A stretch of DNA of 64,000 bases, taken from contig OZ245730.1 of assembly GCA_965227145.1 (NCBI GenBank), forward strand, positions 451,661 to 515,660, read 5' to 3'. Made by a program: the position numbers and the translations under genes. Positions 1 through 63,291 of this stretch are shown piece after piece. The DNA is from Calditrichia bacterium (GTDB lineage: Bacteria > Calditrichota > Calditrichia > RBG-13-44-9 > J075). The notes beneath the pieces are model-generated. The model did no database searches. It saw only the letters and a program-made list of their open reading frames with translations, and had not been told where the DNA came from. Position 1 is the first letter of the stretch. Every line of letters begins with the position of its first letter.

Positions 1-967
1 GGCCGGGAATGTGAGTACCACGGCAACGTTGCGGCTCACTCAAATTCCGCTGGATGAAAATACGCAAACCACTGCCAGTGTGAACACAACGACGGAAACG
101 GTTGACATCAACATGGTGCCGACCCAGCTGGAACTGCGCATAATTGACGAAGTGACGCTGAACGAAGGCAGTTATACAGCCGGACAGCAAAATCTGGCGG
201 TGTTCGGTTTGGCGTTCAGAAACCCGAATCCTGCCGAAATTATCCGAGTGGATTCGATTCATATTCGTGTTACGGAAAACGAATCCAACGTGCCGGATAT
301 CCAAAATTTGTTGTCACGAATGGAAATGGTCAGTTGGGGATTTTATCAAACAAGCCCGAACGGCAATGCAACACCACCGGATCAATTGATTAGCGTGGCA
401 ATATCTGATCCGGGTTCGAATCCGGTGCAACTGATATTTGACCAGCCGTTGCAGATTCCAGCCGGCGAGAGCGACAGTCTGGTGTTGCGCATCGATTTAT
501 CCGGCGCACAGCTGAACCGCAATTTCAATCTGTCGATCAGCAATGTGTGGGCACGCGGCGCATCCTCAAATCCGGCAGATGTGCTGGACGGTTTCGGCAC
601 ACCGATCATCAATTCCGGTTCGATCAAGTCCGGCGGTATTACCATTCTTTCCGGCGACCCGGAAGTGGCGTTCCGCAACTATCCCAACCCGTTTGGGAAA
701 GACAGCAACAACGGCTCGGGGCTGACCTTTTTCTCATTCGTAATGGAAAGCGGCAGCGAAGCGACCATCAGCATTTATACCCTCACCGGTCAACTGGTCT
801 ATCGCCAAACCGAATCCGGGCTGGATAGCGGCGGCAGGTTGTATAACAGAACGCTGTTCTGGAATGGTAAAAACGATGTTGGGCAAACTGTGGTGAACGG
901 TGTTTACATCGCAATTCTGGAAGCCAACGGGCGGCAGTACACCACAAAGGTTGCATTCGTAAAATAG
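1..967 (+). CDS. secreted protein with type IX secretion (Por) C-terminal sorting domain; 5' end lies upstream of window
   Basis: Reading frame is open from nt 2 with no upstream stop, so the N-terminus is truncated by the window edge. The last ~80 aa (…GKNDVGQTVVNGVYIAILEANGRQYTTKVAFVK) fit the T9SS CTD pattern. Confidence 0.6.
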   Translation, partial: AGNVSTTATLRLTQIPLDENTQTTASVNTTTETVDINMVPTQLELRIIDEVTLNEGSYTAGQQNLAVFGLAFRNPNPAEIIRVDSIHIRVTENESNVPDIQNLLSRMEMVSWGFYQTSPNGNATPPDQLISVAISDPGSNPVQLIFDQPLQIPAGESDSLVLRIDLSGAQLNRNFNLSISNVWARGASSNPADVLDGFGTPIINSGSIKSGGITILSGDPEVAFRNYPNPFGKDSNNGSGLTFFSFVMESGSEATISIYTLTGQLVYRQTESGLDSGGRLYNRTLFWNGKNDVGQTVVNGVYIAILEANGRQYTTKVAFVK

Positions 968-13891: not shown

Positions 13892-14031
13892 GCAAATTTT
13901 GTATGGTCATATAATATTACAATTTTGTTACGACAACAAAAAATGTCAAAAAACAGTGAATTTTAAACTCGGTGCTTGCTTTTTTGAATCGTTGCACGTA
14001 ATTTTCTCAGGTTATATATGAAATCAAAACT

Positions 14032-14427
14032 ATGAAAAAAGCACTTTTTACGATCACGTTTCTTCTGGGTTTTTGCATTTCGCTATTTGCTGATGCAATT
14101 ATTGTCGAGTTTGTTGGTGCTCCGGCACGCGATAAAATCGTATTGAACTGGCGAACAGGGGATGAAGCAGCAGTTAATCTGTTTATTGTTGAACGGAGCA
14201 GTGACAAAAAAGTGTTTACCAAAGCTGGTGAGGTTCCTGCTAAAGGAAGCAATAGTGAATATGAGTATGTAGATTCGAACCTGACCAGTGTCAACAATGT
14301 ATATTATTACCGTCTTCGTATCCGTCGAACCGACGGAACCTTCCAATCCAGCGAAATAATCTCCGTTATCCCCAAACTTAGCAGTTTTGCAAAAACTTGG
14401 GGGAGTATAAAAGCCTTATTTCAATAA
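14032..14427 (+). CDS. small secreted hypothetical protein
   Basis: Signal peptide MKKALFTITFLLGFCISLFA; 131-aa open frame; no recognisable motif. Confidence 0.35.
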   Translation: MKKALFTITFLLGFCISLFADAIIVEFVGAPARDKIVLNWRTGDEAAVNLFIVERSSDKKVFTKAGEVPAKGSNSEYEYVDSNLTSVNNVYYYRLRIRRTDGTFQSSEIISVIPKLSSFAKTWGSIKALFQ

Positions 14428-14707
14428 CCGCACAAGATTAAATCACCCCCATACTTAAATTATCAACCCCAAACATTTGGTGGGTGGAGATCTGTTTGTT
14501 GTTATATCTTGGCTTATATGGAGACTTGTGGAAAATGACTTAGTCGAGGGCAATTTTTTTTAATACAATTGAATGCTTTGTTCGATAATCAATTGTAGAG
14601 TGTTTTAAAAACTGGGGTTGACAAAATTAGGTAATTTCATTATCTTCATCGTGCGCCACTTGTGACAGGCGTTACAAAGAGAGATAAAGCGTAAGCAGGG
14701 GATAGTA

Positions 14708-15619
14708 ATGAGGAAGAAGCCGTTATTAATCTATGTTAATCCGGAATCCTCGGGTGTTAAAGAATTTAAATTGTCGTTCAAAAAAATAGCAATTGCGACC
14801 ATTGCAATTGTTGTTGGCGTAGGGATGATTTTAAAGTTTTCAATTGATCATTTTATTGATTACAGCGAAAATTCCAAAATTTCCCAGCTAAAAATTCAGA
14901 ATGAAACGCTTCACGAAGAAATTGAAAAAATCGGTCAAAAATTGTTAAGCCTTAACAGTAGCCTCGATTTTTTAGAGGAGCGTGACGACCAGTTGCGCAC
15001 TCTGCTGGATCTCCCGCCAATTGATTCTGACGTTCGTAAAGTTGGTGTTGGTGGTACCGACCCCAATCTTACAACGGCAACCATGGCAGAAGCTTTTTCA
15101 TTTAGCACCCGTTTAGCTGAAAATTTGAAATTGCTCGACAAGCTGGACCGCGAAGTCCGGTTAGAAAAAGAAAGCTATGAAAAATTAATAGCAACTGTGG
15201 AGCGTCAGCAGGACTCATTGCGTTATCTGCCAGTGCTGAAGCCCGTGCCAAATGCCTATATTTCCAGCAGCTTTGGCAATCGTCGCCATCCTATTAAGAA
15301 ATACATGCATTTCCATAAAGGTGTTGATATGGCTGCCCCGGGTGGTACGCCGATTATTGCTCCGGCTGATGGCGTTGTATCATCCTCCGGACGTAATGGT
15401 GGTTATGGCCTGGAAGTGATGATTGATCACAAATACGGATTTAAAACACGTTTTGGACATATGCAAAAAATTTATGTTCGCAAAGGACAGCATATCAAAC
15501 GTGGCGATAAAATTGGTGAAGTCGGTAAAACCGGTTTAACTACTAGTTATCACCTCCATTACGAAGTTTATTTTAAAGGTAAGCCGCTTAATCCGGAAAA
15601 CTTCTACTTTGATGAATAA
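14708..15619 (+). CDS. M23 family metallopeptidase (LytM-like) with N-terminal TM and coiled coil
   Basis: HxxxD and HxH motifs (HKGVDMAAPGGTPIIAPADG; TSYHLHYEV). N-terminal membrane anchor. Confidence 0.8.
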   Translation: MRKKPLLIYVNPESSGVKEFKLSFKKIAIATIAIVVGVGMILKFSIDHFIDYSENSKISQLKIQNETLHEEIEKIGQKLLSLNSSLDFLEERDDQLRTLLDLPPIDSDVRKVGVGGTDPNLTTATMAEAFSFSTRLAENLKLLDKLDREVRLEKESYEKLIATVERQQDSLRYLPVLKPVPNAYISSSFGNRRHPIKKYMHFHKGVDMAAPGGTPIIAPADGVVSSSGRNGGYGLEVMIDHKYGFKTRFGHMQKIYVRKGQHIKRGDKIGEVGKTGLTTSYHLHYEVYFKGKPLNPENFYFDE

Positions 15620-33884: not shown

Positions 33885-33966
33885 GCCCGGGTGGTGGAAT
33901 TGGCAGACACGCATGACTTAGGATCATGTGCCGAAAGGCGTGGAGGTTCGAGTCCTCTCCCGGGTA
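33885..33966 (+). tRNA. tRNA-Leu (anticodon TAG)
   Basis: Acceptor stem GCCCGGG/CCCGGGT with a G1-U72 wobble. D-arm GGTGGAATTGG. Anticodon stem CATGA/TCATG with loop cTTAGga. Long variable arm GCCGAAAGGCGTG. T-arm GGAGG-TTCGAGT-CCTCT. Discriminator A. CCA is not encoded. Confidence 0.85.
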
Positions 33967-34193
33967 CTGAATAAAAACAACTACTTACAGACACACCTGA
34001 CTTTACAGAATTTCTCTTGCTCCAAACTTGCTCTATTTGCGTTTTAAGAAAAAGCCCCTTGTAGAGGCTAATCTGGTGGTCGCCAAGATTAATTGCCGTA
34101 ATTGGCTGCGCTCGTTCAAGGGGCAAAATGTATAATTAATCCTGGCGACCGGCTTCAATATACAAACCTGCCTTCCGTTTTACTATACCCACT

Positions 34194-35417
34194 TTACCGG
34201 TACATAGTTATGATTTTCGGCGTGGCTGTGAGATAGGTTTCGGTCGTGACCTTCAGGTCGGTATGCCCGAGGATCTGCGAAAGGGCATACACATCCCCGC
34301 GGCGGTTCTCCAGAAAGTTGACCGCGAAAGTATGCCGGAGGCTGTGGATCGAAACGTTCTCCTGGAGATGGCACTTCATTTTGGCTACCCGGAAAAATTC
34401 GTTGACGCTGTTCCGGGAGCTGATCTCGAAAAACAGGTATCCGTCGAAGGCGCGCCGGCGCCAGGATTCGGCGTTTTTGTTTCCGGAGTCAAACAGCAGC
34501 TCGTTCAGCTTTTGGGGATCGCTCATAATCGCCCGGCGGCGTTCAATGATTTCCATAACATCGTTCACCGGCACCCAGCGGGCCTTTTCCTTGAACTTCC
34601 GGGAGCCCTTGCCAATCACCCTCAGGAAGTGCCGGGTTTCGCCGTCGATATCGTTGGTCCGGAGGCGGTTGATGTTCACGTCCAGTATCTCGCTTCTGCG
34701 GAGCCCGGTTTTTAGCCCGAACTCAAAAAAGTCGAGATGCCAGGAAACCTCGCTTTTTTCCAGATACCGGCGGATTTTTTGGATTTCGCTTTCCTCCAGA
34801 TACCTGGGCGAGGTATCCACGTTGAGCAGCGGAAAGCCGATAAACGGGTTGACAGGTATCAACCCGAGTTTTCTGGCATGGCTGAACGCCGAGCGCAAGG
34901 TGCGCAGGTGGACGTTGATCGATGTTGGCTTATAGGGCTTGCCGAATTTGGTGGTGGAGCCAAGCAGGGTATCAATAAAGTGCTGGACGGCGTTCCGGCT
35001 GATTTCCGAAAGCAGGCGCTGCTCCCCAAAAACGGTGATGAGCAGCTTGGTGCTTTGGTTGTCCGTGTCGAATGTGTTCTGGGAAATGTTGCCTCGCTCG
35101 ATTTCCTTTTCCCGGTGGTCCAAGTAGAGCCTGCGGAACTTGCCGAGCGTCATTTTATTCAGATGCGGCAGGTATTCCTTTAGGTTGAAGGACTCCAGCG
35201 CCACCTCGCCCTGGATTTTCCGGAGCGCCTTTTCTGCGACGGCTAGCGCCTTACGGGTGTCGGTTCGGAGGTCAACGTGCTTAATTGTAATGCTTTTGGT
35301 GGAGCCGTCTTGAAATGTAATGAGAATATACGGGCGCTTTCTGCCGGTCCACGGCAGGCTTGCCAGAACCTGCTCCGGCGATGGCTTCAGCTGGACATAG
35401 CGAATCCGGTTATTCAT
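34194..35417 (-). CDS. int: tyrosine-type site-specific integrase
   Basis: C-terminal catalytic motifs (HSLRHTFAV…LGHTDLKVTTETYL). 407 aa. Lies adjacent to the tRNA. Confidence 0.85.
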   Translation of the reverse strand: MNNRIRYVQLKPSPEQVLASLPWTGRKRPYILITFQDGSTKSITIKHVDLRTDTRKALAVAEKALRKIQGEVALESFNLKEYLPHLNKMTLGKFRRLYLDHREKEIERGNISQNTFDTDNQSTKLLITVFGEQRLLSEISRNAVQHFIDTLLGSTTKFGKPYKPTSINVHLRTLRSAFSHARKLGLIPVNPFIGFPLLNVDTSPRYLEESEIQKIRRYLEKSEVSWHLDFFEFGLKTGLRRSEILDVNINRLRTNDIDGETRHFLRVIGKGSRKFKEKARWVPVNDVMEIIERRRAIMSDPQKLNELLFDSGNKNAESWRRRAFDGYLFFEISSRNSVNEFFRVAKMKCHLQENVSIHSLRHTFAVNFLENRRGDVYALSQILGHTDLKVTTETYLTATPKIITMYR

Positions 35418-35873: not shown

Positions 35874-36293
35874 ATGGAGGTTACTTTGAAGATCGTAACA
35901 GCAACCCAGCAGCAAGTCAAGTTTATTTTGGCGCCGGCAATGGCCGGCTTTCCATCGCCGGCGGATGACTATCTGGAGGGCAGCCTGGATCTGACCCAGC
36001 TGATGATTTACCACCCGGCCGAAACCTACCTGTTCAATGTCAAGGGTAACTCGATGGTAGATGCGCATATTGACGACGGGGACATGCTTTTAGTGGACCG
36101 GGCGATTAAGCCCCAGAACGGGGATCTGGTTCTGGCGAAGCTAGACGGCTGTTTTCTTGTTAAAAAGTATTTCAACAAGGGCAGCTATGTTGTCCTGGCG
36201 TCATGCAATAAGGACTACGAGCCCATCCGGATTGAGGAGGGGCGGGAGTTTGAGGTGTTTGGGAAGGTAATATTTGCGATACGGCCTAGGTAA
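35874..36293 (+). CDS. UmuD-like S24 peptidase domain protein (no HTH, no adjacent umuC)
   Basis: 139 aa. The protein carries the GFPSPADDY cleavage-site region, the Ser nucleophile in GNSM and the Lys in LVKKYF. It is colinear with UmuD/LexA C-domains. Confidence 0.75.
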   Translation: MEVTLKIVTATQQQVKFILAPAMAGFPSPADDYLEGSLDLTQLMIYHPAETYLFNVKGNSMVDAHIDDGDMLLVDRAIKPQNGDLVLAKLDGCFLVKKYFNKGSYVVLASCNKDYEPIRIEEGREFEVFGKVIFAIRPR

Positions 36294-37140: not shown

Positions 37141-39198
37141 CTATATACCATAAAGTTTTCTTAGTTTTTCAATTACTAACTGCCAGTTATTCAAAAATTG
37201 ATAACTTTCAGGCTTAAATATAGCCTTAAGAGCCTTGTAATAATTTAAACTTTCGACTATATCGTTATTGAGTTTATCCAATCTTTCTGTCGTTGTTTTT
37301 TGTAACAATATATCAATTTCATTTTGGATACGATACAAAAAGTGCTTTTTGGTGTTTTTGTCAATAATTATGTCTTCAGGTGGTTTTCCCTTGCAATAGG
37401 GACAATTGCAGGCCAAGTTTTTTCCAGTGGCTCCTGCGAGAATTGCAAAAAGTTTTGATGGGTCTTTTCGATTAATAGGGACATTCGCAAAAAGCTCAGG
37501 TATATAATATCTAACAAATAAATTATATGAATCTGTTCTGTCTTTGTATAAATCCTCATAAAAACTTTCAAATCTTGCGCTACCAGACTCAAAGCCATGG
37601 ATTCCAAATGCAAGTAGTAACAAGCCAATTAAGCCTACTCTACCGGCAATGACTGGTTTACCAGAAGAAACTTGTAATGTTCTGAGTGTCTGAATGAAGT
37701 GGTATAGCTCTGAAGTTGATGATTGATGATTTATGCAATCGACATAAATAAGATAGCCGTCACATGGGAGACCAGTTAAAATGTTAATAAAATATTCTTT
37801 TTCAACCTTACTTGTTAATATCTCTGAACGAATTGAAAAACCTGCGATTAGAGGAATTGAAATATTGTTTTCATCTAGATACATCCTAGTTTGTTTTATT
37901 AGGCGATAATCGACATTAAACCAGTTTAGCTGCCTATCGTGTTTTATTGTTATGTGTTCAGAATTATTACTTACGTGAAAGGGGCTGACTAAATAAGTGG
38001 GATCATGTTCCAGTTGAGTATCAATAACGCTTTTTATATATTGGTATCTTTTTGTGTCATCATCTAAGTCAGATAACTCGATTTTTGAATAATTACTAGG
38101 CGCATAAGGTAGTTGTGTTAAACCTTTTACATCTGAAAAAGTATCATATGCTAAACGCATTGTTGCAGGGTCAAACATTAAATTTATTTTGGGGTTTTGT
38201 AGAATTTTTAGCAAATTTTTTTGTTGATATTGATGGTTGATCGGGAAAATAGCATTTTTTATTTTATACCCGTCATTGAGGTACTCAGTTAATACTTGCT
38301 TCTCGTTCCAAGTTCTCAAATAAAGCCCTGGTTCAAAGTAATTACGATTATGCTTTGGTAGTTGGTTATTTGTGATATTAAAGTATTTTTTTATATCAGA
38401 TATCGAATTTGGTCGATTATGTACAGTTTTTTCAAGAAGATGATAAATCAACTTTTCATAGGACGCATCTAAATCTGGTCGATATAATAATATAGAATCC
38501 GGCCTATTATTTAGAATTCTATAAAATAATTCAGGAAGTGAGGTTGCTCTCCCATAGGGACTTACTTTAGTAAGAATTTCAAAGTATAACACTCCTAAGG
38601 AATAATAATCAGAACGGTAATCTATATTTTTTGAATCATTTATTTGTTCTGGTGACATATACAGTGGGCTACCAATTTGGCTTCCTGTGCTGGTTAGCGA
38701 GGAATAATCAATAAGCTTTGAAAGCCCAAAGTCGAGAAGTTTTATTTCACCTGCGTTTGTTAAGTAGATATTCTCAGGCTTTAAGTCCCTATGAATTATT
38801 CCCTTAGAGTGTATTGCATTTAATCCTTCTAGTATTTGAAAAAAGATGTCCTTTTCATTAATTTGTCGATTATTCCTTATTATATCACGGATATCTGAGC
38901 CCTCAAGGAATTCCATCACGACATAGATATAAATTTGTGAATTTTCTATTAATTCTCCACTCTCAATGTATTTGATCACATTTGGGTGATCGATTCTTGT
39001 TAAGGTTTCAATCTCTCTTGAAATACGGTTATTCGCCCCTCGTGTAAATTCCTCATAAACATATTCTCTATTAAATATTTTAATGGCATAGGTTTTAGAA
39101 GTAGTATCCCTAATGCATTTATAGACTGATCCAAATGCACCTTTTCCAATAAAAGAGGATATTGAATAGCATCCAATTTTTTTTCCTAACATTACCAT
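37141..39198 (-). CDS. Hanks-type Ser/Thr protein kinase fused to a C-terminal tRNA-guanine-transglycosylase(TGT)/DpdA-like domain
   Basis: Kinase subdomains: GKGAFGSVYKC (G-loop), YAIKIF (VAIK), HRDLKPENIYL (catalytic loop), DFGLSK (DFG), GSPLYMSPE (APE). The ~400-aa C-terminal domain contains LMFDPATM (cf. TGT DSGGYQ), GKPVIAGRVG…GIHGFES (cf. TGT KPxYLMGVG…GIDMFD) and a Zn-type CNCPYC (CxCxxC) followed by HFLYRIQNEI (cf. TGT His and HNL helix). Confidence 0.7.
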   Translation of the reverse strand: MVMLGKKIGCYSISSFIGKGAFGSVYKCIRDTTSKTYAIKIFNREYVYEEFTRGANNRISREIETLTRIDHPNVIKYIESGELIENSQIYIYVVMEFLEGSDIRDIIRNNRQINEKDIFFQILEGLNAIHSKGIIHRDLKPENIYLTNAGEIKLLDFGLSKLIDYSSLTSTGSQIGSPLYMSPEQINDSKNIDYRSDYYSLGVLYFEILTKVSPYGRATSLPELFYRILNNRPDSILLYRPDLDASYEKLIYHLLEKTVHNRPNSISDIKKYFNITNNQLPKHNRNYFEPGLYLRTWNEKQVLTEYLNDGYKIKNAIFPINHQYQQKNLLKILQNPKINLMFDPATMRLAYDTFSDVKGLTQLPYAPSNYSKIELSDLDDDTKRYQYIKSVIDTQLEHDPTYLVSPFHVSNNSEHITIKHDRQLNWFNVDYRLIKQTRMYLDENNISIPLIAGFSIRSEILTSKVEKEYFINILTGLPCDGYLIYVDCINHQSSTSELYHFIQTLRTLQVSSGKPVIAGRVGLIGLLLLAFGIHGFESGSARFESFYEDLYKDRTDSYNLFVRYYIPELFANVPINRKDPSKLFAILAGATGKNLACNCPYCKGKPPEDIIIDKNTKKHFLYRIQNEIDILLQKTTTERLDKLNNDIVESLNYYKALKAIFKPESYQFLNNWQLVIEKLRKLYGI

Positions 39199-39369: not shown

Positions 39370-40365
39370 TCAGTCCTGCCAGGCAGTCAGAACTCCATTC
39401 TCAAAGTAAACATAAGTGCGATAATAAACCCACTGCTCATGAACTCCCCACGATCCAACCGACCTGTTAATATCACGAGGATCACCCCAGCTTGCACGTA
39501 CCATTTCCCTGCTCATTCCAATATAAATTTCTCCATTTAAGATTTGATTTTTTCTAGAACGTGATAATTTTGGATTGTCTCTAACGAATTTTTGTCTTCT
39601 TAAATCACTTTCAGAAATTAAAGCCACTTCACGATAGCTTACAAGATCCTTGCTTATCCAAGCATCTGTATACTTTTGTTTTAACTGTTTAAGGGTAGAC
39701 GGGGTAGTGTTATTATTTTTAATACGAATCTTAATCCAGCTTCCCGCTTCAAGATTTTTATAAACAATTTCTCCTTGCCTAAGAGTTGATACAATTTTGC
39801 CACCAGTTGATGATGTATCTCGTACATTGGCAGTTAGTGAGCTAATCCATAACGGTGTTGATTCATACTCAATGTCAAGTTTTTTGGCATTAGTGCTCTC
39901 GGCTTTTCGGTCTATTGAGCTTTTAAATGTGCCCTCATTATTAACATGAAAGCTTAACTCTCGTTTGATAGATGCAAGTTCATTTTGTAGTTTTGTAAAT
40001 GAGGATATGTCTGGTGAGTCTTTAATGAATGATTCAAAAATAAAACCCTTTTTACCTTGAAACTCAACAAAGGCATACTTTTGTGATTCATGTCTGTTTT
40101 CAATAAAACGAAATAAATGGATTTCATCTCCGGAACTAATTTTAGCAATTTTTTTTGAACTACGTGATCCTTCTCTGAATAAACTCGCGCCATATACCAG
40201 CTTGACGGTTAGCCCTTCATTATTGATCCTATTAATTTGTGTTTCTAATTTTTTTTCAAGAAGTGTTAAGCTATCAAGTTTAGCCACATATAAGCGATTT
40301 GCTACGTCGGAGTACTGCGCATGGCAAATCAGGCTAACAAATAACAATAATATCGTAATTCTCAT
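39370..40365 (-). CDS. secreted protein with C-terminal BamE/SmpA_OmlA-like domain
   Basis: Signal peptide MRITILLLFVSLICHAQ. C-terminus GMSREMVRASWGDPRDINRSVGSWGVHEQWVYY…NGVLTAWQD resembles the BamE fold signature. AT-rich. Confidence 0.5.
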   Translation of the reverse strand: MRITILLLFVSLICHAQYSDVANRLYVAKLDSLTLLEKKLETQINRINNEGLTVKLVYGASLFREGSRSSKKIAKISSGDEIHLFRFIENRHESQKYAFVEFQGKKGFIFESFIKDSPDISSFTKLQNELASIKRELSFHVNNEGTFKSSIDRKAESTNAKKLDIEYESTPLWISSLTANVRDTSSTGGKIVSTLRQGEIVYKNLEAGSWIKIRIKNNNTTPSTLKQLKQKYTDAWISKDLVSYREVALISESDLRRQKFVRDNPKLSRSRKNQILNGEIYIGMSREMVRASWGDPRDINRSVGSWGVHEQWVYYRTYVYFENGVLTAWQD

Positions 40366-40418: not shown

Positions 40419-40862
40419 TTATCTCCCCAAAAACTTCTCAATCTCCTTCCGGTCCGGATCGGTGATGCTGCCGAGCTGGGTCAGCTTTGCCTTCGTCTCG
40501 AAGATGACCTCCTCGCACTGCTGCAGAGCTTCCGGGCTTACGGCGTTGGATTCCTCCGCGTCCATGTGAAATCCCAGCATAAAGTTCAGAAAGTTGTTCA
40601 GGATGTGCTGGCTTGACCTAACGGACGCCAGAAACACCTCCCTTTTTTCCTGCTCCTTTTTCGCCATCTGCTCAAAATGGTGCTTGATAAGTATATATAG
40701 CATCGCAGTAGTTGCGACGACAAAAAGCCACCCCTTGAACGTTTGGGCTACGGTAACAAGATCAAGGGTTTTAAATAAAAGAGCTACGGCTTTATCTGAA
40801 AGCAAAATCCATATAGTGCCAATCATGAAATAGATCAGCGGGATTTTAAGCTGAGGCTTCAT
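40419..40862 (-). CDS. small membrane protein (2 TM helices + helical C-terminal domain)
   Basis: Hydrophobic helices IYFMIGTIWILL and WLFVVATTAMLYILI. 147 aa. Confidence 0.4.
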   Translation of the reverse strand: MKPQLKIPLIYFMIGTIWILLSDKAVALLFKTLDLVTVAQTFKGWLFVVATTAMLYILIKHHFEQMAKKEQEKREVFLASVRSSQHILNNFLNFMLGFHMDAEESNAVSPEALQQCEEVIFETKAKLTQLGSITDPDRKEIEKFLGR

Positions 40863-40973
40863 TAACAGTTACTCCGATTTGTGGTTTCATAGATCACAGC
40901 ACAGATGGGTAGCTGAATGTAGCCAGTTTTTATATCGAAAGAAATCCGCGATTACGGAGCTTTGGAGTGATTT

Positions 40974-41011
40974 TCTCTGTAATTACGGAGAGCTTCTCTG
41001 TAATTACGGAG
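40974..41011. repeat. direct repeats TCTCTGTAATTACGGAG x2 (21-bp phasing) plus third ATTACGGAG copy at 40951
   Basis: 17-bp units at 40974-40990 and 40995-41011. Core ATTACGGAG also at 40951-40959. They lie between the membrane-protein gene and the cI-like gene. Confidence 0.6.
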
Positions 41012-41047
41012 GGCAATATGTCAAAATACAGAGGCGCAAACGGCCTT

Positions 41048-41440
41048 TTAGTCGAGGTCGTCTACCATCCCCTTTAAAAATTCCAGAATGCTTTCCCGCT
41101 TTTTTTCGGGCATCCGCATGAGCAGGTCGTAGATTTCTTTCATGTCCGGGCGGAGTTCGTTTTGGGGTATTGGCTTTGATTTCTCAAAGTATACCAAATC
41201 GCCATCCTCAATAATTTCACGATTAAACGCCTCAGCTATTGACCTTACAGTTGCTTCCTGAACGTTTTGCGTTTCGCCAATGATGATTTTTCTTAGTCCT
41301 GGGTAAGACATGCCTACTCGTTTTGCCATTTCGGGAATTGACAAACGCTCCTCTTTTCGAAGCTCCTCTATGGCCTCCCTGATGTTCGAGTATCGCATAT
41401 CAAAATATAGCACTTGTCTAATCCTTTGTAAATGAAACAC
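41048..41440 (-). CDS. XRE/cI-like HTH transcriptional regulator (prophage repressor candidate)
   Basis: HTH segment IPEMAKRVGMSYPGLRKIIIGE. Divergently oriented from the rightward early genes, with an operator-like palindrome in the intergenic region. Confidence 0.6.
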   Translation of the reverse strand: MFHLQRIRQVLYFDMRYSNIREAIEELRKEERLSIPEMAKRVGMSYPGLRKIIIGETQNVQEATVRSIAEAFNREIIEDGDLVYFEKSKPIPQNELRPDMKEIYDLLMRMPEKKRESILEFLKGMVDDLD

Positions 41441-48926: not shown

Positions 48927-49859
48927 ATGCCACGCGAAAAAAGAGATACAGTTGAATATTTCCCCCATTACGCCAAGCCTGGCGGGGGGAAAACCAAGCG
49001 GCTGCTGTTCAAGGAGTTCGGTCACGCCGGGAAATCCTGCTGGTTTGAGCTGCTGGAAATCCTCGCGGATTCGGACGGGCACTACCTCGATTTGCGGGAA
49101 GATATCGACTGGCTGGACGTGGTCGAAACGCTCCAGATCGACGAGGAAACGGCGAAACGCTTCTTTGATTTCCTGGTCCGGCTGGGAAAAATCGACGCCG
49201 AATTGTGGGAAAAGAAGGTCGTTTGGTGCCAAAACCTGGTGAACGAGGTTGAGCACGTTTACCGTAACCGGCGTAGAAAAGCGCCGAAAAAGCCGGTGAT
49301 TGATGATTCCAACAGCCAAATCATTCAAGAAACCGAGCCATCGGACGATTCCGGCGGCGTTTCTACGGTAGAAACGCCGGATTTCAGTCCAGAAATGCAA
49401 CAGAGCAAAGTAGAGCAAAGAAGAGCAAAGCAAAGTAGAGAAGAGCAAAGTAGAGCAAAGCAAACCCGCGAAAGTAGCGTAGGAACATCCGCCGGCGCTG
49501 TGAGCCGAAACGGGACCTCGCCGCCCGGCAACGGTTTGCTTCGTTTGCCTCCTGACGGAGATATTTTTGCTACTTTGCTTTTTGTCCTGCGGAAGGATAA
49601 CGGCTCGCGGCATCCCGGAGCGAAAGCCAACGCGGAGAAGAAGGTCGCGGAGCTGCGGAAAACGCAGGATCCCGCCTGGGTATCGGAAAAGCTGGAGCAC
49701 TACAGCTACTGCAAGAAGTTTCGACCGGAGCTTTTGGGCGATAAGCCGACCGGCTACCTGATCGCGTCCATCGAGAAGCGCTACCCGCCGCCCTTTGGCT
49801 ACGACGAGCACGTCCGGCAGCAGGTGCAGGAATCGTTGAAACGGGCATCTCCGGGATAG
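48927..49859 (+). CDS. phage replisome organizer/replication initiation-like protein containing internal iterons
   Basis: Position between the helicase and RusA. The N-terminal domain looks like phage Lin1244-type replication organizers (from memory, unverified). The internal 10-bp-phased repeat encodes the SKVEQRRAKQSREEQSRAKQ stretch. Confidence 0.4.
   Translation: MPREKRDTVEYFPHYAKPGGGKTKRLLFKEFGHAGKSCWFELLEILADSDGHYLDLREDIDWLDVVETLQIDEETAKRFFDFLVRLGKIDAELWEKKVVWCQNLVNEVEHVYRNRRRKAPKKPVIDDSNSQIIQETEPSDDSGGVSTVETPDFSPEMQQSKVEQRRAKQSREEQSRAKQTRESSVGTSAGAVSRNGTSPPGNGLLRLPPDGDIFATLLFVLRKDNGSRHPGAKANAEKKVAELRKTQDPAWVSEKLEHYSYCKKFRPELLGDKPTGYLIASIEKRYPPPFGYDEHVRQQVQESLKRASPG
49402..49460. repeat. 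iteron-like tandem repeats: AGAGCAAAG at exact 10-bp phasing (5 full copies + partial)
   Basis: Copies at 49402, 49412, 49422, 49442, 49452 (49432 degenerate). Inverted CTTTGCT-type copies and an AT-rich tract lie at 49531-49590. Confidence 0.65.
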
Positions 49860-51266: not shown

Positions 51267-51458
51267 AATAGTGAACATTTTTATTGACAAAAGGCGAAAA
51301 AAAACCTTACCTTTAGTGAACAAAAATTCACACAATTTGTTTTGTTAAATGCTTCTCTGGTTCTGACGAAAATTTCATTTTTTCTTAATAATTTTTCATG
51401 AATTTATCTCTTCACTATGCTTTCAGTATTGAAGGTCTAGCTTTTTGAAGAGGGGGAT

Positions 51459-52370
51459 ATGATTAACTATATTGATGGAAAGTTTTTTGCTTCGCCTGCT
51501 CAAGTGTTTGTAAATACTGTGAATACTGTTGGTGTTATGGGCAAAGGTGTTGCAAAGGTATTCAAAGATATTTATCCCGATATGTTTAAAATTTATCAGA
51601 AATTATGTGATTCTCATGAGTTAGGGATTGGGAAATTACAGCTATACAGAAGCTCAAATAAGTGGATTTTAAACTTCCCAACTAAAAAAGATTGGCGGCA
51701 TCCTTCGAAGGTAGAGTATGTAGAGGCCGGGTTAAAAACATTTGTGGATTCATATGTTGATATGGGTATAAATAGCATTGGGTTTCCTGCGCTTGGATGT
51801 GGGAATGGCGGGCTTGACTTTGAAAAGCAGGTTAAACCACTGATGGAAAAATATTTGTCAAACCTGCCAATTGCCATTTTTATTTATCCCCATAAACATA
51901 ATTATGGGCTACCTGAGCATACAGATAAAGCTGGTATGAAAAAGTGGCTTCAGTCGGAACCGTACTTTCTGCCATTTTCCGAAGTTTGGAAGGACTTGGT
52001 GAATACTCTTGAAAGTCGAAAGCACTTTAATACGCTTGACAAAAATACGCCATTTGAAGCAATTTTGGATAATTTGGCAGTTATCAAAATAACTACATCA
52101 TGTGATGTTCTCTATGTCCACAAAGAAGATACAATGGACTTTTGGCAACAAATAAGAAGCTACGGTTTCATATCAAGTATGGACGCACCCTCGGGACTAA
52201 ACCAAATTTTTTACTATTTATCCCCGATTTTTAGTGTACTAGGCTATATCAAAGTTATCAGATTAGTTAATGAAAATGTTGCAAGAAGCATTTATGGCTT
52301 ACAATACTTTGAACCTTACGTTTATAACAATATGATTTATGACGCTGATGAACATTTAAATTTCTATTAA
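51459..52370 (+). CDS. macro-domain (ADP-ribose binding/hydrolase) protein with ~150-aa C-terminal extension
   Basis: Macro motifs VFVNTVNTVGVMGKGVAKVF (cf. VNAAN…GGGV…AI) and NSIGFPALGCGNGGLD (cf. IAFPAISTGVYG). AT-rich cassette. Confidence 0.75.
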   Translation: MINYIDGKFFASPAQVFVNTVNTVGVMGKGVAKVFKDIYPDMFKIYQKLCDSHELGIGKLQLYRSSNKWILNFPTKKDWRHPSKVEYVEAGLKTFVDSYVDMGINSIGFPALGCGNGGLDFEKQVKPLMEKYLSNLPIAIFIYPHKHNYGLPEHTDKAGMKKWLQSEPYFLPFSEVWKDLVNTLESRKHFNTLDKNTPFEAILDNLAVIKITTSCDVLYVHKEDTMDFWQQIRSYGFISSMDAPSGLNQIFYYLSPIFSVLGYIKVIRLVNENVARSIYGLQYFEPYVYNNMIYDADEHLNFY

Positions 52371-52519
52371 AACAACAAGGAAAATGTCTGGTATTTGATC
52401 AAAACTCTTTTTACGCCGTTGATTCTTTCTAAATAATAACAAGCAGTTGAATTATTGGATCAATTTTCATAAATATGCTTAAGAATTGAAACAAGAATAG
52501 CGTGGAGAATATTTGCTTG

Positions 52520-53443
52520 ATGAAAAATGGACTATATATGGATTCAGAACATATTTTAATAAAAGGGGACACCCTTAAAAATTTAAAAAAAATCGAATCG
52601 GACAAATTCGATTTAACAATCACGTCTCCACCTTACAACATTGGTAAGGCATATGAAACCAAAATGTCAATTGAAAAATACTTAGAGCTCCAGGAAGAGG
52701 TGATTGCGGAGCTGGTTAGAGTTACGTCGAGCCGAGGTAGCATTTGCTGGCAGGTTGGTAATTATGTGGATAATGGTGAAATTTTTCCTTTAGATATTTA
52801 CTACTATCAAATTTTCAAAAAGCTAAATCTAAAGTTAAGAAATAGGATAATCTGGCACTTTGGACACGGGCTGCATGCGTCTAACCGATTTTCGGGTAGA
52901 TACGAAACTATTTTGTGGTTTACAAAAACTGATAACTATATTTTTAACCTTGATGACGTTAGAATCCCCTCTAAATACCCCGGAAAAAGACACTTTAAGG
53001 GCCCAAACAAAGGCAAGCCATCTGGTAACCCAAAGGGTAAAAACCCTTCGGATATATGGGAAATCATTATGGGCGACTGGGAAAAGGGGCTTTGGGATAT
53101 TCCTAACGTAAAATCAAATCATCCTGAGAAAACGTCTCACCCCTGCCAGTATCCGGTTGAGCTAATTGAAAGATGCATATTAGCTCTAACTAATAACGAC
53201 AGCTGGGTTTTAGATCCATATGTAGGGGTAGGATCGACGGCAATAGCAGCGATCAAAAACGGGCGTAGTGTAGTCGGGATTGACAAAGAAGAAAATTATA
53301 TAAAAATTGCCAACGAGCGAATTCGGGACTTCAAAGTTGGAAAACTTAGACTAAGACCTATCAATAAGCCCATACACAAGCCAAGCCCAAATGACAAAGT
53401 TGCGCGAATTCCGGACGAATGGAATATAGGTAACCCAAAATGA
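52520..53443 (+). CDS. beta-class amino-DNA methyltransferase (N4-cytosine/N6-adenine, SPPY motif)
   Basis: FDLTITSPPYNIG catalytic motif near the N-terminus. AdoMet motif in the C-terminal part (VLDPYVGVGSTAIAA). Start ambiguous (GTG 52502 / ATG 52520 / ATG 52538). Confidence 0.8.
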   Translation: MKNGLYMDSEHILIKGDTLKNLKKIESDKFDLTITSPPYNIGKAYETKMSIEKYLELQEEVIAELVRVTSSRGSICWQVGNYVDNGEIFPLDIYYYQIFKKLNLKLRNRIIWHFGHGLHASNRFSGRYETILWFTKTDNYIFNLDDVRIPSKYPGKRHFKGPNKGKPSGNPKGKNPSDIWEIIMGDWEKGLWDIPNVKSNHPEKTSHPCQYPVELIERCILALTNNDSWVLDPYVGVGSTAIAAIKNGRSVVGIDKEENYIKIANERIRDFKVGKLRLRPINKPIHKPSPNDKVARIPDEWNIGNPK

Positions 53444-54054
53444 GAATATCCCAAAAGTATTCACACCTGAACGGCGAGGAGTTTCTGATTGTGCATCACA
53501 ACGACATTTATCAAGAAATAAAGGATGTCGTTAGTTCGATAGATGCTAATGTGTATAGGACAAAGGTTAGCCAGGAAAAGAGATCGCCTGGTAAGCTACT
53601 TTATAGCCCGGTTGATATCAACCAAGCTCTAAAGGAAGAGTTTGCAAGTAGAGGTTGGAACGAATCAAGGTATTCCTACTACATAACGCTTAACAGGCAA
53701 CTCATGGAAGAAAGCCTGAAGATGGATATACAGGAACAACGGAAGTTCTTCATTGAAAATGGTGACGCCGAGCCGATTTACTCATACAATCAAACAGACT
53801 TTCTTAAGGACCTGATCGCAATAGAAGTTCAGTTTGGTAAATACGCGTTTGTCGCGTATGATCTATTTGTTAAGCATATGCTATTTTTTTCCGGCGGAAA
53901 AATTAATCTGGGAGTAGAAATTCTACCAACCAAGGTAATGCAGAGAGAAATGTCATCCGGAATTGCCTATTTCGAAGGCGAGGTCTATAACGTAATGCGT
54001 CAAGGAAGAACAAGCCCCCCCGTTCCTTTACTCATATTAGGGATTGAACCGTAG
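53440..54054 (+). CDS. BglII/BamHI-family Type IIP restriction endonuclease-like protein
   Basis: Start overlaps the MTase stop (ATGA). The segment LKDLIAIEVQFGKYAF closely resembles the BglII active-site strand (…RDTLVEVQFSNYPF…, Glu/Gln pair). The N-terminus is also BglII-like. Confidence 0.6.
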   Translation: MRISQKYSHLNGEEFLIVHHNDIYQEIKDVVSSIDANVYRTKVSQEKRSPGKLLYSPVDINQALKEEFASRGWNESRYSYYITLNRQLMEESLKMDIQEQRKFFIENGDAEPIYSYNQTDFLKDLIAIEVQFGKYAFVAYDLFVKHMLFFSGGKINLGVEILPTKVMQREMSSGIAYFEGEVYNVMRQGRTSPPVPLLILGIEP

Positions 54055-61142: not shown

Positions 61143-61208
61143 GCTAGCCAACCTATGGTTGGCATAGCCCGAATTTATTATAAATTACTTACTGGTACCG
61201 TTTTGTCA

Positions 61209-62702
61209 TCATCTTACATTTTTCACGCAGCGGATGTATAAAATATCGTTTTGAGAGGCAACAGCGGACCAGGTGCCGTTATCTCCATCAGCTATTTTTG
61301 TCATAATCGGGATTTGATTATTATTCTTTGGCCCCCACCACCCGCTTCTTTTTCCAAGGTAATAAAATTTTCCATTCCATAGCCATCCACCGGGGCGAGC
61401 AGAAAAGCCGGTTGAATTCGTGGCTTTACCATTGTTTGGCCAGTAATCCCCTGTTTCTCTTTTTTCTCTCAATTGATAAGCCGCAAATGTTAACCCTTTA
61501 GCACCCGGTTCTATCGTTATACCATCTACTTCTTTATCATACCATTTACGTAAAACCAATTCCCAATCCTCTTGGCCGGGAATTCGCCATCCGTTTGGGC
61601 AGACATCGCAATCTTTGATTGTGGTCCAATTGTAGAGCGGTCCATATACAACGCTGTTGCTGCTTTTGGGCGAATTATCGTGCCAATACATGGCCGCTTT
61701 GCTGTCTTTTTCATCTAAATTCACACGCTTGATATCTTTGATTGTTTGTGTGGAAGCATCCCACCACCGGCGTGCCCGCAGATTCTCTGCCATCCAAAAT
61801 CGATTGTCAATTTTTACAACCCGATAGAACGGATACAAATCAATTTTCGCCAAATTGTTGAGAATCCGTTCATCAAAAGATTTGATCCTGTTGGGTATGG
61901 CTGCCGTTATTTTTGTTAATGTTTCCTGTGCGAAACGATCATTTCTATATTTAACAACGAGGTATGCGACAAAACTTTCAGCAACATCTTCCCTGCATTT
62001 AAAATCAAAAGCATACTTTGAAATGTACATGGGATCATCGTTTTGAATTTGTTGCCATTCTTCCTTACAAACTTCCCCTTCATTGTAATATAAATAATCC
62101 AAGGCAGCATGGCATGACTCGTGAATCAAGGTTTCTTCTTCAACTTTTCTTCTTTCATAGTCCCTTGAATGTTCTCCATCAACTTGTAAATCTAACCACC
62201 CGACATTCCGGTTGCGATTACCCCCCCAAGCCAAATCGCCTTTCATTAGATTAATATGGTTAACGCCTTCACGTAAAAAGGCAGGAATCCTTCCCATCAT
62301 TGTTGCATATTTTATGGCAAGAGTTTTGGCATCTGCTTGATCTGGATAATCGCTCTTTCTAATATTTATTTTTGAGGTTATATCGTCATCATATGTAATG
62401 CTGAAAACATAAGCCTCAGGGTAATCCCAAGCACCAGCGCCATTGTTAGCCTCCCTATCGTACATTTCAACCCTTGGTTCAATTGTTGGGCCGGAAATTG
62501 TTTTATAGGTGGTTAGGTCGTCTTTATTCACCAGGTCCGAATATATAAAAGTTGTTCCATCTTCGGACATGTAATTTTGGGTTGTCTGGGCTTGCGTTTT
62601 ATAAGTTGAGAGAAAAAAACAGCACGCTACCAATCCTAGTAAGATTGTATTTTTTAAGATACATATTTTACGTTTTTTTTCAGTCCTTATTAATATACCC
62701 AT
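61209..62702 (-). CDS. lipoprotein with HExxH metalloprotease domain and C-terminal Fibrobacter succinogenes major paralogous (FISUMP) domain
   Basis: Lipobox LLGLVACC. Zinc motif LIHESCHAALD. C-terminus …WMAENL…YNW…CPNGWRIPGQEDWELV…TGFSARPGGW… matches the FISUMP pattern. The upstream in-frame extension to 62774 is probably not coding. AT-rich. Confidence 0.6.
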   Translation of the reverse strand: MGILIRTEKKRKICILKNTILLGLVACCFFLSTYKTQAQTTQNYMSEDGTTFIYSDLVNKDDLTTYKTISGPTIEPRVEMYDREANNGAGAWDYPEAYVFSITYDDDITSKINIRKSDYPDQADAKTLAIKYATMMGRIPAFLREGVNHINLMKGDLAWGGNRNRNVGWLDLQVDGEHSRDYERRKVEEETLIHESCHAALDYLYYNEGEVCKEEWQQIQNDDPMYISKYAFDFKCREDVAESFVAYLVVKYRNDRFAQETLTKITAAIPNRIKSFDERILNNLAKIDLYPFYRVVKIDNRFWMAENLRARRWWDASTQTIKDIKRVNLDEKDSKAAMYWHDNSPKSSNSVVYGPLYNWTTIKDCDVCPNGWRIPGQEDWELVLRKWYDKEVDGITIEPGAKGLTFAAYQLREKRETGDYWPNNGKATNSTGFSARPGGWLWNGKFYYLGKRSGWWGPKNNNQIPIMTKIADGDNGTWSAVASQNDILYIRCVKNVR

Positions 62703-63291
62703 CCATGTGCCTTTTTTTCCCATGCCTGTTGGAATACTATCCAACTTAATTTTTACTTGCGTAACTCGTTTCATACATTTGCCTCTTCTCTTTAGGTTAT
62801 TGTTGCCATAATCCTGATCAATGAAAGACTATGATGGGTTCATAACAGTTATTTTCAAAATGCTGTATGTGGCATGGGTAAGAGATTTTAGGTTTTTCAG
62901 AGTTTAAACGGCAGATGGATTATTAAAGCGAATATTTTCCGGTTCGTCATATAAGGCTGGTTTTCTTATAAAGGTAATTCACCAATATTTTGGAGATGCT
63001 GAACCCAGATTATCCAGGATTAAAAACTATTTCCGAGGTTTTCGCTTTTAACGAGTGCGAATTTTAGTAGAGAGGATATTGCTAAAACTAATTATACCGT
63101 AATTACGCGTTTTTGTCAAGTAGAAATCTGGCTCTGAAGGTTTTATTTTTTTTGCTAAGAAAAAGCTTGTAACAATTGGGTAATTTGAATCAGATCCAAC
63201 GATATAATATTTTTTCATAATATGATTGCGACTTCATATATCTTCAATTATACGCTTATAACTTTCTCCTGCGCTAACAAAGGAGTAAGTT

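Follow-up and report, generated by a model that had tools for sequence, protein, structure and literature searches.

Enzymes built on the tRNA-guanine transglycosylase (TGT) fold have so far been found to mediate base exchange in tRNA (queuosine, archaeosine), base exchange in DNA, as with DpdA, and, very recently, chemistry on a nucleobase-protein conjugate, as with Cap10 in the cyclic oligonucleotide-based antiphage signalling system (CBASS). In TGT and DpdA the exchange reaction involves three invariant aspartates, which serve as the general acid/base, in base recognition and as the nucleophile, respectively, and in DpdA mutation of the equivalents of the first or the third of these residues abolishes exchange (PMC10164549). 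Cap10 represents a TGT-fold enzyme that has been remodelled to act on a protein partner (bioRxiv 10.1101/2025.04.06.647259), and a TGT homologue is also present in BREX-related capture systems (PMC12839542). The subject here is a gene in which a TGT-like domain, recognised from a predicted structure, follows a complete Ser/Thr protein kinase domain within a single polypeptide, and which is itself followed by a gene for a PD-(D/E)xK nuclease-like protein, referred to below as the partner. The two genes lie within a stretch of 64,000 nucleotides from a Calditrichia bacterium (GenBank assembly GCA_965227145.1, contig OZ245730.1, positions 451,661 to 515,660), which is the window of this analysis, and their pairing is conserved at related loci in other genomes.

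What kind of domain is it that follows the kinase? The first-pass annotation of this DNA, made from the sequence alone, had proposed a divergent TGT/DpdA-like domain with a zinc site, to be checked by a search with profile hidden Markov models (HMMs) and by structure prediction. The profile search answered to this for one half of the protein, where Pkinase is matched, and not for the other, where there is no Pfam TGT match. Residues 287-685 have no Pfam match at E<=10, phmmer and hmmsearch comparisons of the C-terminal domain with PDB sequences returned nothing significant, and the Pfam TGT model (PF01702) matches none of 33 family members at E<=1. The structure prediction, on the other hand, gave a TGT-like fold for the C-terminal ~400 residues. 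An AlphaFold2 model of this half, built from 63 homologues, is confident (predicted local distance difference test score, pLDDT, 84.4; predicted template modelling score, pTM, 0.88) and comprises eight beta-alpha units and, after them, a helical region. The top six Foldseek matches are all QTRT1/TGT, with E-values of 1e-5 to 3e-4, and the barrel is specifically closest to TGT-family structures. The figures tabulated for the C-terminal half are 19.9 for bacterial TGT, 18.8 for QTRT2, 17.6 for DpdA, 16.5 for CBASS Cap10 and 16.0 for archaeosine TGT (ArcTGT). On the predicted model, the assignment of this region as a TGT/DpdA-like (beta/alpha)8 (TIM) barrel with a TGT-type zinc motif is supported. 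Matches to the mitochondrial ATP-synthase subunit b (E ~1e-3) were also returned and are judged probably spurious, as they involve the C-terminal helices only and have no fold-search support.

The cysteine cluster towards the end of the protein is a predicted TGT-type structural zinc site. Within the close family C597, C602 and H619 are invariant and C599 is present in at least 90% of members, while superfamily-wide, of 55 diverse relatives with identities down to 17%, at least 90% retain C597, C602 and H619 and about 85% retain C599. The most conserved residues across these 55 relatives are those of the zinc motif together with D343-P344. A profile of the zinc region places the CxCxxC...H motif position-exact onto the ligands C279, C281, C284 and H307 of ArcTGT, with an E-value that is weak (0.81), and the alignment runs on into an LH[NF]L helix start that the two share. 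The zinc site read from the cysteines in the first-pass annotation is thereby upheld as a motif of the TGT type, and the idea that it might belong to an unrelated zinc ribbon is not borne out.

A separate question is whether a domain with this fold is likely to act as a transglycosylase. Its residues were mapped onto TGT by the strand order of the model, by the order and spacing of motifs in comparison with E. coli TGT, and by a co-linear hhalign alignment over strands 4-7 that is non-significant (probability 0.5-1.6%). In this mapping the E. coli TGT segments LTD89SG (strand 3), IFD143EC (strand 4), FDGYAVGGL (strand 6), KPRYLMGVG (strand 7) and GIDMFD264C (strand 8) correspond to MFD343PA, SPFH408VS, CDGYLIYVD487, KPVIAGRVG and GIHGFE537S of the fusion protein. 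The general acid/base Asp of strand 3 (D102 in the Z. mobilis enzyme, D89 in that of E. coli and D95 in DpdA) would, by strand order and motif, correspond to D343. This residue is found at the end of predicted strand 3; none of 142 full-length fusions, of which 112 are close and 30 distant, departs from it, and the standalone relatives described below have D or N there. The base-recognition Asp of strand 4 (Z. mobilis D156, E. coli D143, DpdA D130) appears to be absent, its place taken by H408, a position that reads F, L or H in relatives. The nucleophile Asp of strand 8 (Z. mobilis D280, E. coli D264, DpdA D256) also appears to be absent, its position mapping to E537, where Glu is invariant only within the close subfamily and S, T, I or E is found elsewhere. 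The mapping agrees with the earlier remark that the usual Asp positions read His and Glu; neither position is conserved in the wider family. By this mapping one of the three catalytic Asp residues seems to have been kept and two to have been lost, and canonical base exchange is doubtful because these two are missing and because no preQ0-pathway genes recur near the gene. The domain is thus filed as a member of the TGT structural superfamily that stands outside the group of enzymes with canonical base exchange. One possibility is a pseudo-enzyme of the QTRT2 kind or a binding module; another, for the close subfamily, in which D343, H408, D487, R520, E537 and E544 are all invariant, is an enzyme with altered chemistry.

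With the N-terminal half, Pfam Pkinase (PF00069) matches residues 11-264 at 184.7 bits, against a curated cutoff of 31.7 bits, and the catalytic signature is complete, comprising the Gly-rich loop, the VAIK Lys (K40), the alphaC Glu (E62), the HRD Asp (D138), N143, the DFG Asp (D156) and the segment at residues 182-184, where the canonical APE reads SPE. The complete Hanks-type kinase recognised in the first reading of the sequence is thus confirmed. In the 142 fusions K40, E62, H136, D138, N143, D156, G158, D197 and R262 are essentially invariant, and because of this the kinase appears to be under selection as an active enzyme. The PADLOC models for mad6 and PD-T4-6 also match the kinase part strongly, with the mad6 match covering profile positions 53-308 of 659. 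The full-length NCBIfam models remain below their cutoffs (MAD6 with 150 against 460 bits, PglW with 50 against 990 bits), and NF033483, which describes PknB/Stk1 kinases, scores 198 bits and is well under its cutoff of 450 bits. Membership in mad6 or PD-T4-6 systems was rejected, as the matches are confined to the kinase domain and amount to generic Hanks-kinase similarity; the housekeeping PASTA kinase of S. thermophilus has also been labelled 'PD-T4-6' (PMC11514479). No mad, pgl or brx genes adjoin the fusion gene in the window, and the fusion protein has no PASTA or transmembrane region.

All of the motifs on which the first reading was based are located in the 685-residue translation (Table 1). 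The end points it gave for the gene are exact, and what it overlooked is the strand: the plus-strand translation of the interval is riddled with stop codons, and it is the minus strand that carries the open reading frame (ORF) of the fusion. Two codons after its start there is another in-frame ATG, which gives the 683-aa form that is present in public data (P0001). The 685-aa product itself had no exact record, nor had P0121. When the C-terminal 399 residues alone were used as the query, more than 273 clusters (90% identity) with the full-length architecture were found, at 50-57% identity over the C-terminal domain, and nearly all of these are ~683 aa in length with the N-terminal kinase present. 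An exhaustive HMM search gave 300 clusters at 50% identity. The fusion ORF is a real, conserved gene, far beyond chance. It has a GC content of 32%, compared with 48% for the window, and lies inside a low-GC patch at ~36-42 kb. A scan for promoters and terminators yielded no more candidates than were found in shuffles.

The first-pass annotation also overlooked the partner gene, the prophage/defence-island setting and the standalone, kinase-less relatives. The ATG of the partner is only 2 nt past the stop codon of the kinase fusion, on the same strand (...ATA TAG TA ATG...), and none of the Pfam, NCBIfam, PADLOC or PHROG models matches the protein. Its AlphaFold2 model (pLDDT 87.5) has a restriction-endonuclease-like core fold, and superposes on many winged-helix regulators by way of a domain inserted at about residues 45-115. 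Across 16 homologues, with identities down to 16%, E24, D33, E118-x-K120 and Q130-A-x-R-Y134 are invariant, and the catalytic D...(D/E)-x-K motif of the PD-(D/E)xK superfamily is present as D33, E118 and K120. Judged by these residues, the partner is a PD-(D/E)xK nuclease-like protein with the hallmarks of an active member of that superfamily. In a local HMM search the partner was located directly downstream of the kinase–TGT-like gene in all 25 related loci with downstream DNA, which include 19 species-representative genomes, mostly of Clostridia. The spread of the kinase–TGT-like family is patchy, with only 19 hits among ~185,000 species-representative genomes. A partner also lies, in convergent orientation, beside a high-GC kinase fusion of 29% identity, a distant relative that is further adjoined by a helicase (Helicase_C) gene and an MZB-domain gene.

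Two architectures are found within the 300 clusters, fusions of ~670-700 aa and standalone TGT-like proteins of ~380-430 aa, the latter without Pfam or PADLOC annotation. A partner homologue adjoins four of five standalone TGT-like genes (E = 1e-30, 8e-28, 6e-27 and 2e-9, the last for a truncated copy), with variable gene order, and in two of the standalone contexts a PIN_3 gene overlaps the TGT-like gene. For instance, in one case (L031, 4701-7302) a cassette in which a PIN_3 gene overlaps the standalone TGT-like gene and a partner homologue lies in convergent orientation is found between S10 and L3 in a ribosomal-protein operon, and the same three-gene cassette occurs elsewhere (L029, 3411-5733) beside an integrase and a type III restriction-modification (R-M) system. 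The remaining standalone gene, the fifth, has an Xre-like/RES pair nearby. Since the partner adjoins both the fusions and four of the five kinase-less standalones, the conserved core is the TGT-like protein together with the winged helix-turn-helix (wHTH)/PD-(D/E)xK protein, and the kinase and PIN are interchangeable accessory modules.

In some lineages (the P0064 cluster; L026, 8265-9698; L028, 8136-9186) the fusion is split into a kinase piece of ~240 aa and a TGT-like piece of ~433 aa, or the fusion and its partner are present as decayed copies; these fit the rapid turnover that is typical of accessory or defence genes. A number of shorter 'kinase-less' matches (P0027, P0041, P0064 and others) were considered as a separate architecture and rejected, as they are N-terminally truncated or split copies. 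In one 466-aa protein (P0232) a TGT-like region (residues 151-446) is preceded by the N-terminal domain of DnaA and the beginning of its ATPase, and the protein may be either a genuine alternative fusion or a chimera of assembly or gene calling.

In the window, the tRNA-Leu gene and the tyrosine integrase mark the left end of an integrated phage-like element (Table 1). No second copy of the tRNA-Leu 3' end (attR) was found within the window, which implies that the element extends beyond the 64 kb or has a short att core. The kinase/partner pair has the tRNA-Leu and integrase on one side and the Xre-like repressor together with Sak4-like and SbcC-like ATPases on the other, and sits in the accessory, integrase-proximal region of this element. 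The two low-GC genes upstream of the kinase gene, which encode proteins of 331 aa and 147 aa, are not conserved beside homologues elsewhere. Beside the Xre-like repressor gene, in the intergenic region 40973-41014, there is a tandem 21-nt repeat, TTCTCTGTAATTACGGAGAGC, in two copies that are 95% identical and which is a possible operator. Other low-GC patches are found at 14000-15600, 51400-54000 and 61200-62800 (33-42% GC against a background of 48-60%), and these three may be additional horizontally acquired cargo. A periodic repeat, AGAGCAAAGTAGAGCAAAG, is present in four copies with 10-15-nt spacing at 49402-49460, within a high-GC coding region.

Table 1 Features of the window (nucleotide positions count from its first letter; residues are those of the 685-aa fusion protein unless stated).
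Feature	Position	Strand	Basis or remark
tRNA-Leu	33885..33967	plus	ARAGORN; likely integration site of the carrying element
Tyrosine integrase	34194..35417	minus	NCBIfam XerC/D-like matches; PHROG 1 integrase E=2.7e-51
UmuD/LexA-like S24 peptidase gene	35874-36293	plus	Pfam E=7.9e-28; between integrase and kinase operon
Partner gene, 223 aa	36467..37138	minus	Predicted PD-(D/E)xK nuclease-like core with inserted winged helix (partner residues ~45-115)
Kinase–TGT-like fusion gene, 685 aa	37141..39198	minus	ATG start; stop codon 37141-37143; ORF list and translation, full-length homologues
Hanks-type Ser/Thr protein kinase domain, residues 11-285	38344..39168	minus	Pfam PF00069 E=2.8e-54
Predicted TGT-superfamily (beta/alpha)8 barrel, residues 287-590	37429..38340	minus	D343, H408, D487, R520, E537
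D343 codon	38170-38172	minus	End of strand 3
E537 codon	37588-37590	minus	End of strand 8
Predicted C-terminal Zn subdomain and helical bundle, residues 591-685	37144..37428	minus	Zn-motif conservation, ArcTGT alignment
C597-x-C599-x2-C602	37393-37410	minus	
H619	37342-37344	minus	
Kinase motifs	residues GKGAFG 18-23; YAIK 37-40; HRDLKPEN 136-143; DFG 156-158; SPE 182-184		SPE is APE-like
C-terminal motifs	residues LMFDPATM 340-347; GKPVIAGRVG 513-522; GIHGFES 532-538; CNCPYC 597-602; HFLYRIQNEI 619-628		
331-aa protein	39370-40365	minus	Signal-peptide-like N-terminus, bacterial SH3_3 domain; low-GC, upstream of kinase gene
147-aa protein	40419-40862	minus	Hydrophobic N-terminus; low-GC, upstream of kinase gene
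Xre-like repressor gene	41048-41440	minus	
ORFs of the other low-GC patches	14708-15619, 51459-52370, 52502-53443, 53440-54054, 61209-62774 (minus)		

At homologue loci elsewhere, in prophages and in an integrative and conjugative element (ICE), the neighbours include type III R-M, Abi_C, Fic, DpnI and WYL genes, and at another locus partition genes lie beside the homologue pair. Among 125 ORFs that flank the gene at 19 loci, AbiEii (6 ORFs) and AbiEi (4 ORFs) recur most often; several DNA methyltransferases, AAA_21, Eco57I, Bro-N and resolvase are also among the families that recur most. At several loci (L014, L015 and L017, for example) an ORF pair of AbiEi/AbiEii-like size ends at the start of the kinase gene. 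The AbiE neighbours could represent a recurrent association or mere co-location in defence islands. None of the queuosine/deazaguanine families (QueC/D/E, FolE, DpdB, DpdC) is found among the 25 most recurrent families listed for the 125 ORFs, which means that none is seen in two or more of these ORFs, and the annotated homologue neighbourhoods contain no DpdB/DpdC or preQ0-synthesis genes. Neither Cap9 (QueC-like) nor a CD-NTase is found near the gene in the window or at the homologue loci.

How might these parts work together? The reading that is favoured here, tentatively, is that the operon of the kinase–TGT-like fusion and the nuclease, placed in the accessory region of a phage-like element at tRNA-Leu, is a candidate anti-phage or abortive-infection module. 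The TGT-like domain would act as the recognition module, and what it binds would be nucleic acid, a purine-type base that is flipped or modified, or a nucleobase-like ligand arising in the course of infection. Recognition would then activate the kinase of the same polypeptide, which would autophosphorylate and/or phosphorylate the partner or proteins of host or phage, such that the kinase serves as transducer or co-effector and the nuclease partner as the DNA-cleaving effector. The analysis shows what the domains are, which residues are conserved, that the two genes are strictly paired and that they lie in mobile elements or defence islands, and the defence role, the order of these events and the nature of the ligand are what we infer; the precedent of Cap10 as a repurposed TGT fold lends the idea some support. 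A more pointed form of it, which is possible but on the unlikely side, is that the domain is either a new immune sensor, for a flipped or hypermodified purine such as that in phage 7-deazaguanine DNA or for a nucleobase-derived signal, or an enzyme of non-canonical base excision that employs Glu537, and that in either case it gates the kinase and nuclease. If so, the TGT-like and nuclease pair would stand for a family of conflict systems that is widespread in prokaryotes, has gone unrecognised and can exchange modules such as the kinase and PIN. A number of points weigh against a sensor in a defence module. The defence role follows from guilt by association, and communication between the kinase and the nuclease is a proposal. 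The residue mapping onto TGT draws only on strand order, motif resemblance and the non-significant hhalign alignment, so that another acidic residue, for example E544 or D487, could be the nucleophile, and the invariance seen in the close subfamily would suit an active enzyme no less than a passive sensor. Finally, the close-family profile found no relatives in IMG/VR viral contigs, and the family is thus not a typical phage gene.

If the domain were an active DNA transglycosylase, the locus could resemble the Dpd type of R-M, in which a 7-deazaguanine or other base is written as a self mark, the partner restricts unmarked DNA and the kinase is a regulator or fail-safe, as has been proposed for PglW/MAD6 in methylation-based systems. 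The core of a TGT-like protein and a wHTH nuclease does resemble a pair of modifier and restriction enzyme, the zinc site and, by the mapping, the strand-3 Asp are retained, and in the close subfamily an invariant acidic residue, E537, maps to the nucleophile position. However, two of the three Asp residues that are invariant in TGT/DpdA are gone by the mapping, the nucleophile is S, T or I in many relatives, the Pfam TGT model finds none of the 33 members and the QueC/D/E, FolE, DpdB and DpdC genes do not recur amongst the neighbouring ORFs, all of which makes this unlikely. A comparably low probability is given to an addiction or toxin-antitoxin (TA)-like cassette, in which a nuclease or PIN toxin is restrained by the TGT-like protein and the role is maintenance of the element rather than phage defence. 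This would suit the small, tightly overlapping gene pairs, the association with PIN_3 and the RES toxin nearby, the cassette within a ribosomal-protein operon, the occurrence on an ICE and on prophages, and the frequent AbiE TA neighbours, but an 'antitoxin' of 400-685 aa that combines a conserved, enzyme-like pocket with an active kinase would be atypical for TA. As TA and abortive-infection roles are not mutually exclusive, this explanation overlaps with that of an anti-phage or abortive-infection module.

The target could also be RNA. PIN/VapC toxins often cleave tRNA or rRNA, and PIN_3 genes overlap some of the standalone relatives; the best fold matches, TGT, QTRT1 and QTRT2, are tRNA enzymes. 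The TGT-like domain might bind a tRNA anticodon loop rather than DNA, to sense or target host or phage tRNAs, with the nucleases acting on RNA. Such a system is improbable, given that PIN is found in some branches only and that the universal partner combines PD-(D/E)xK with a winged helix, as DNA enzymes typically do. Least credible, and disfavoured, is a housekeeping signalling kinase of the PknB/Stk type with an uncharacterised sensor domain and no link to conflict. The generic PknB/Stk1 similarity of the NF033483 match speaks for it, albeit below cutoff, and against it stand the low-GC island by an integrase and tRNA, the patchy spread, the obligate nuclease partner, the split and decayed copies, the defence-island neighbours and the lack of a PASTA or transmembrane region. 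The reading as an anti-phage or abortive-infection module is the one carried forward here. If it is true, a fourth branch of the TGT fold, invisible at the sequence level, would widen the repertoire of this fold in immunity. A nuclease is the obligate companion of this branch, and hundreds of lineages have it joined to an active-looking Ser/Thr kinase. The module would also offer a tractable case of a Hanks kinase coupled to a defined sensor and effector (cf. Stk2, PD-T4-6, PglW, MAD6). Because neither the TGT-like domain nor the partner has a Pfam, NCBIfam or PADLOC model, the genes are labelled merely 'serine/threonine kinase' and 'hypothetical protein' and are overlooked by defence-system finders.

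No description of a kinase-TGT fusion, or of a module made up of a TGT-like protein and a nuclease, emerged from full-text literature searches; the comparison here is with systems that share single components. DpdA (PDB 7UI4) has in common with the fusion protein the CxCxxC...H site, an Asp that, on the predicted model, ends strand 3 and a defence setting with nucleases. However, it contains all three catalytic Asp residues (D95, D130 and D256) and depends on DpdB and on the preQ0 pathway (PMC10164549), whereas by the mapping the fusion protein has His at the position of strand 4 and Glu at that of strand 8, both variable in relatives, a kinase is fused at the N-terminus, there is no Pfam TGT match, and the loci have no recurrent DpdB, DpdC or Que genes. 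Cap10 of type IV CBASS (PDB 9NTN) is a TGT-family enzyme that acts on the deazaguanylated N-terminus of the CD-NTase. It differs in keeping the catalytic D248 and the base-reading residues D73, S74 and D122, and it is encoded with Cap9 (QueC-like) and the CD-NTase, neither of which is present at the fusion locus. QTRT2 (PDB 6FV5), the non-catalytic subunit of the eukaryotic TGT, functions in tRNA modification by pairing with a catalytic TGT paralogue and, unlike the fusion module, has no kinase, nuclease or conflict context. GrwAB of V. cholerae, which targets deazaguanine-modified phage DNA, was considered and found to be unrelated, as it consists of DUF262/DUF1524 proteins.

With regard to the kinase, Stk2, PD-T4-6, PglW of the bacteriophage exclusion (BREX)/Pgl systems and MAD6 of the methylation-associated defence system (MADS) are likewise eukaryotic-like Ser/Thr kinases of active appearance whose genes lie in mobile or defence loci, and PglW and MAD6 couple the kinase with immunity based on DNA modification. 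Yet with these systems it is the kinase domain alone that matches, and none of them has a TGT-like domain or the 223-aa partner. The partner, for its part, shows no sequence-level family membership with SPO1766 (PDB 3DNX), NucS, PaqCI or XisH, and differs from SPO1766 and the restriction-endonuclease-like nucleases in that its winged helix interrupts the core between the first element and the second. Among published systems, DpdA, Cap10 and the BREX-related TGT homologue come nearest as precedents, and none of them has the architecture of a kinase–TGT-like protein with a nuclease. What is new about this locus is therefore the combination: known superfamilies brought together in an arrangement that has not been described, two components of which are invisible to current family models.

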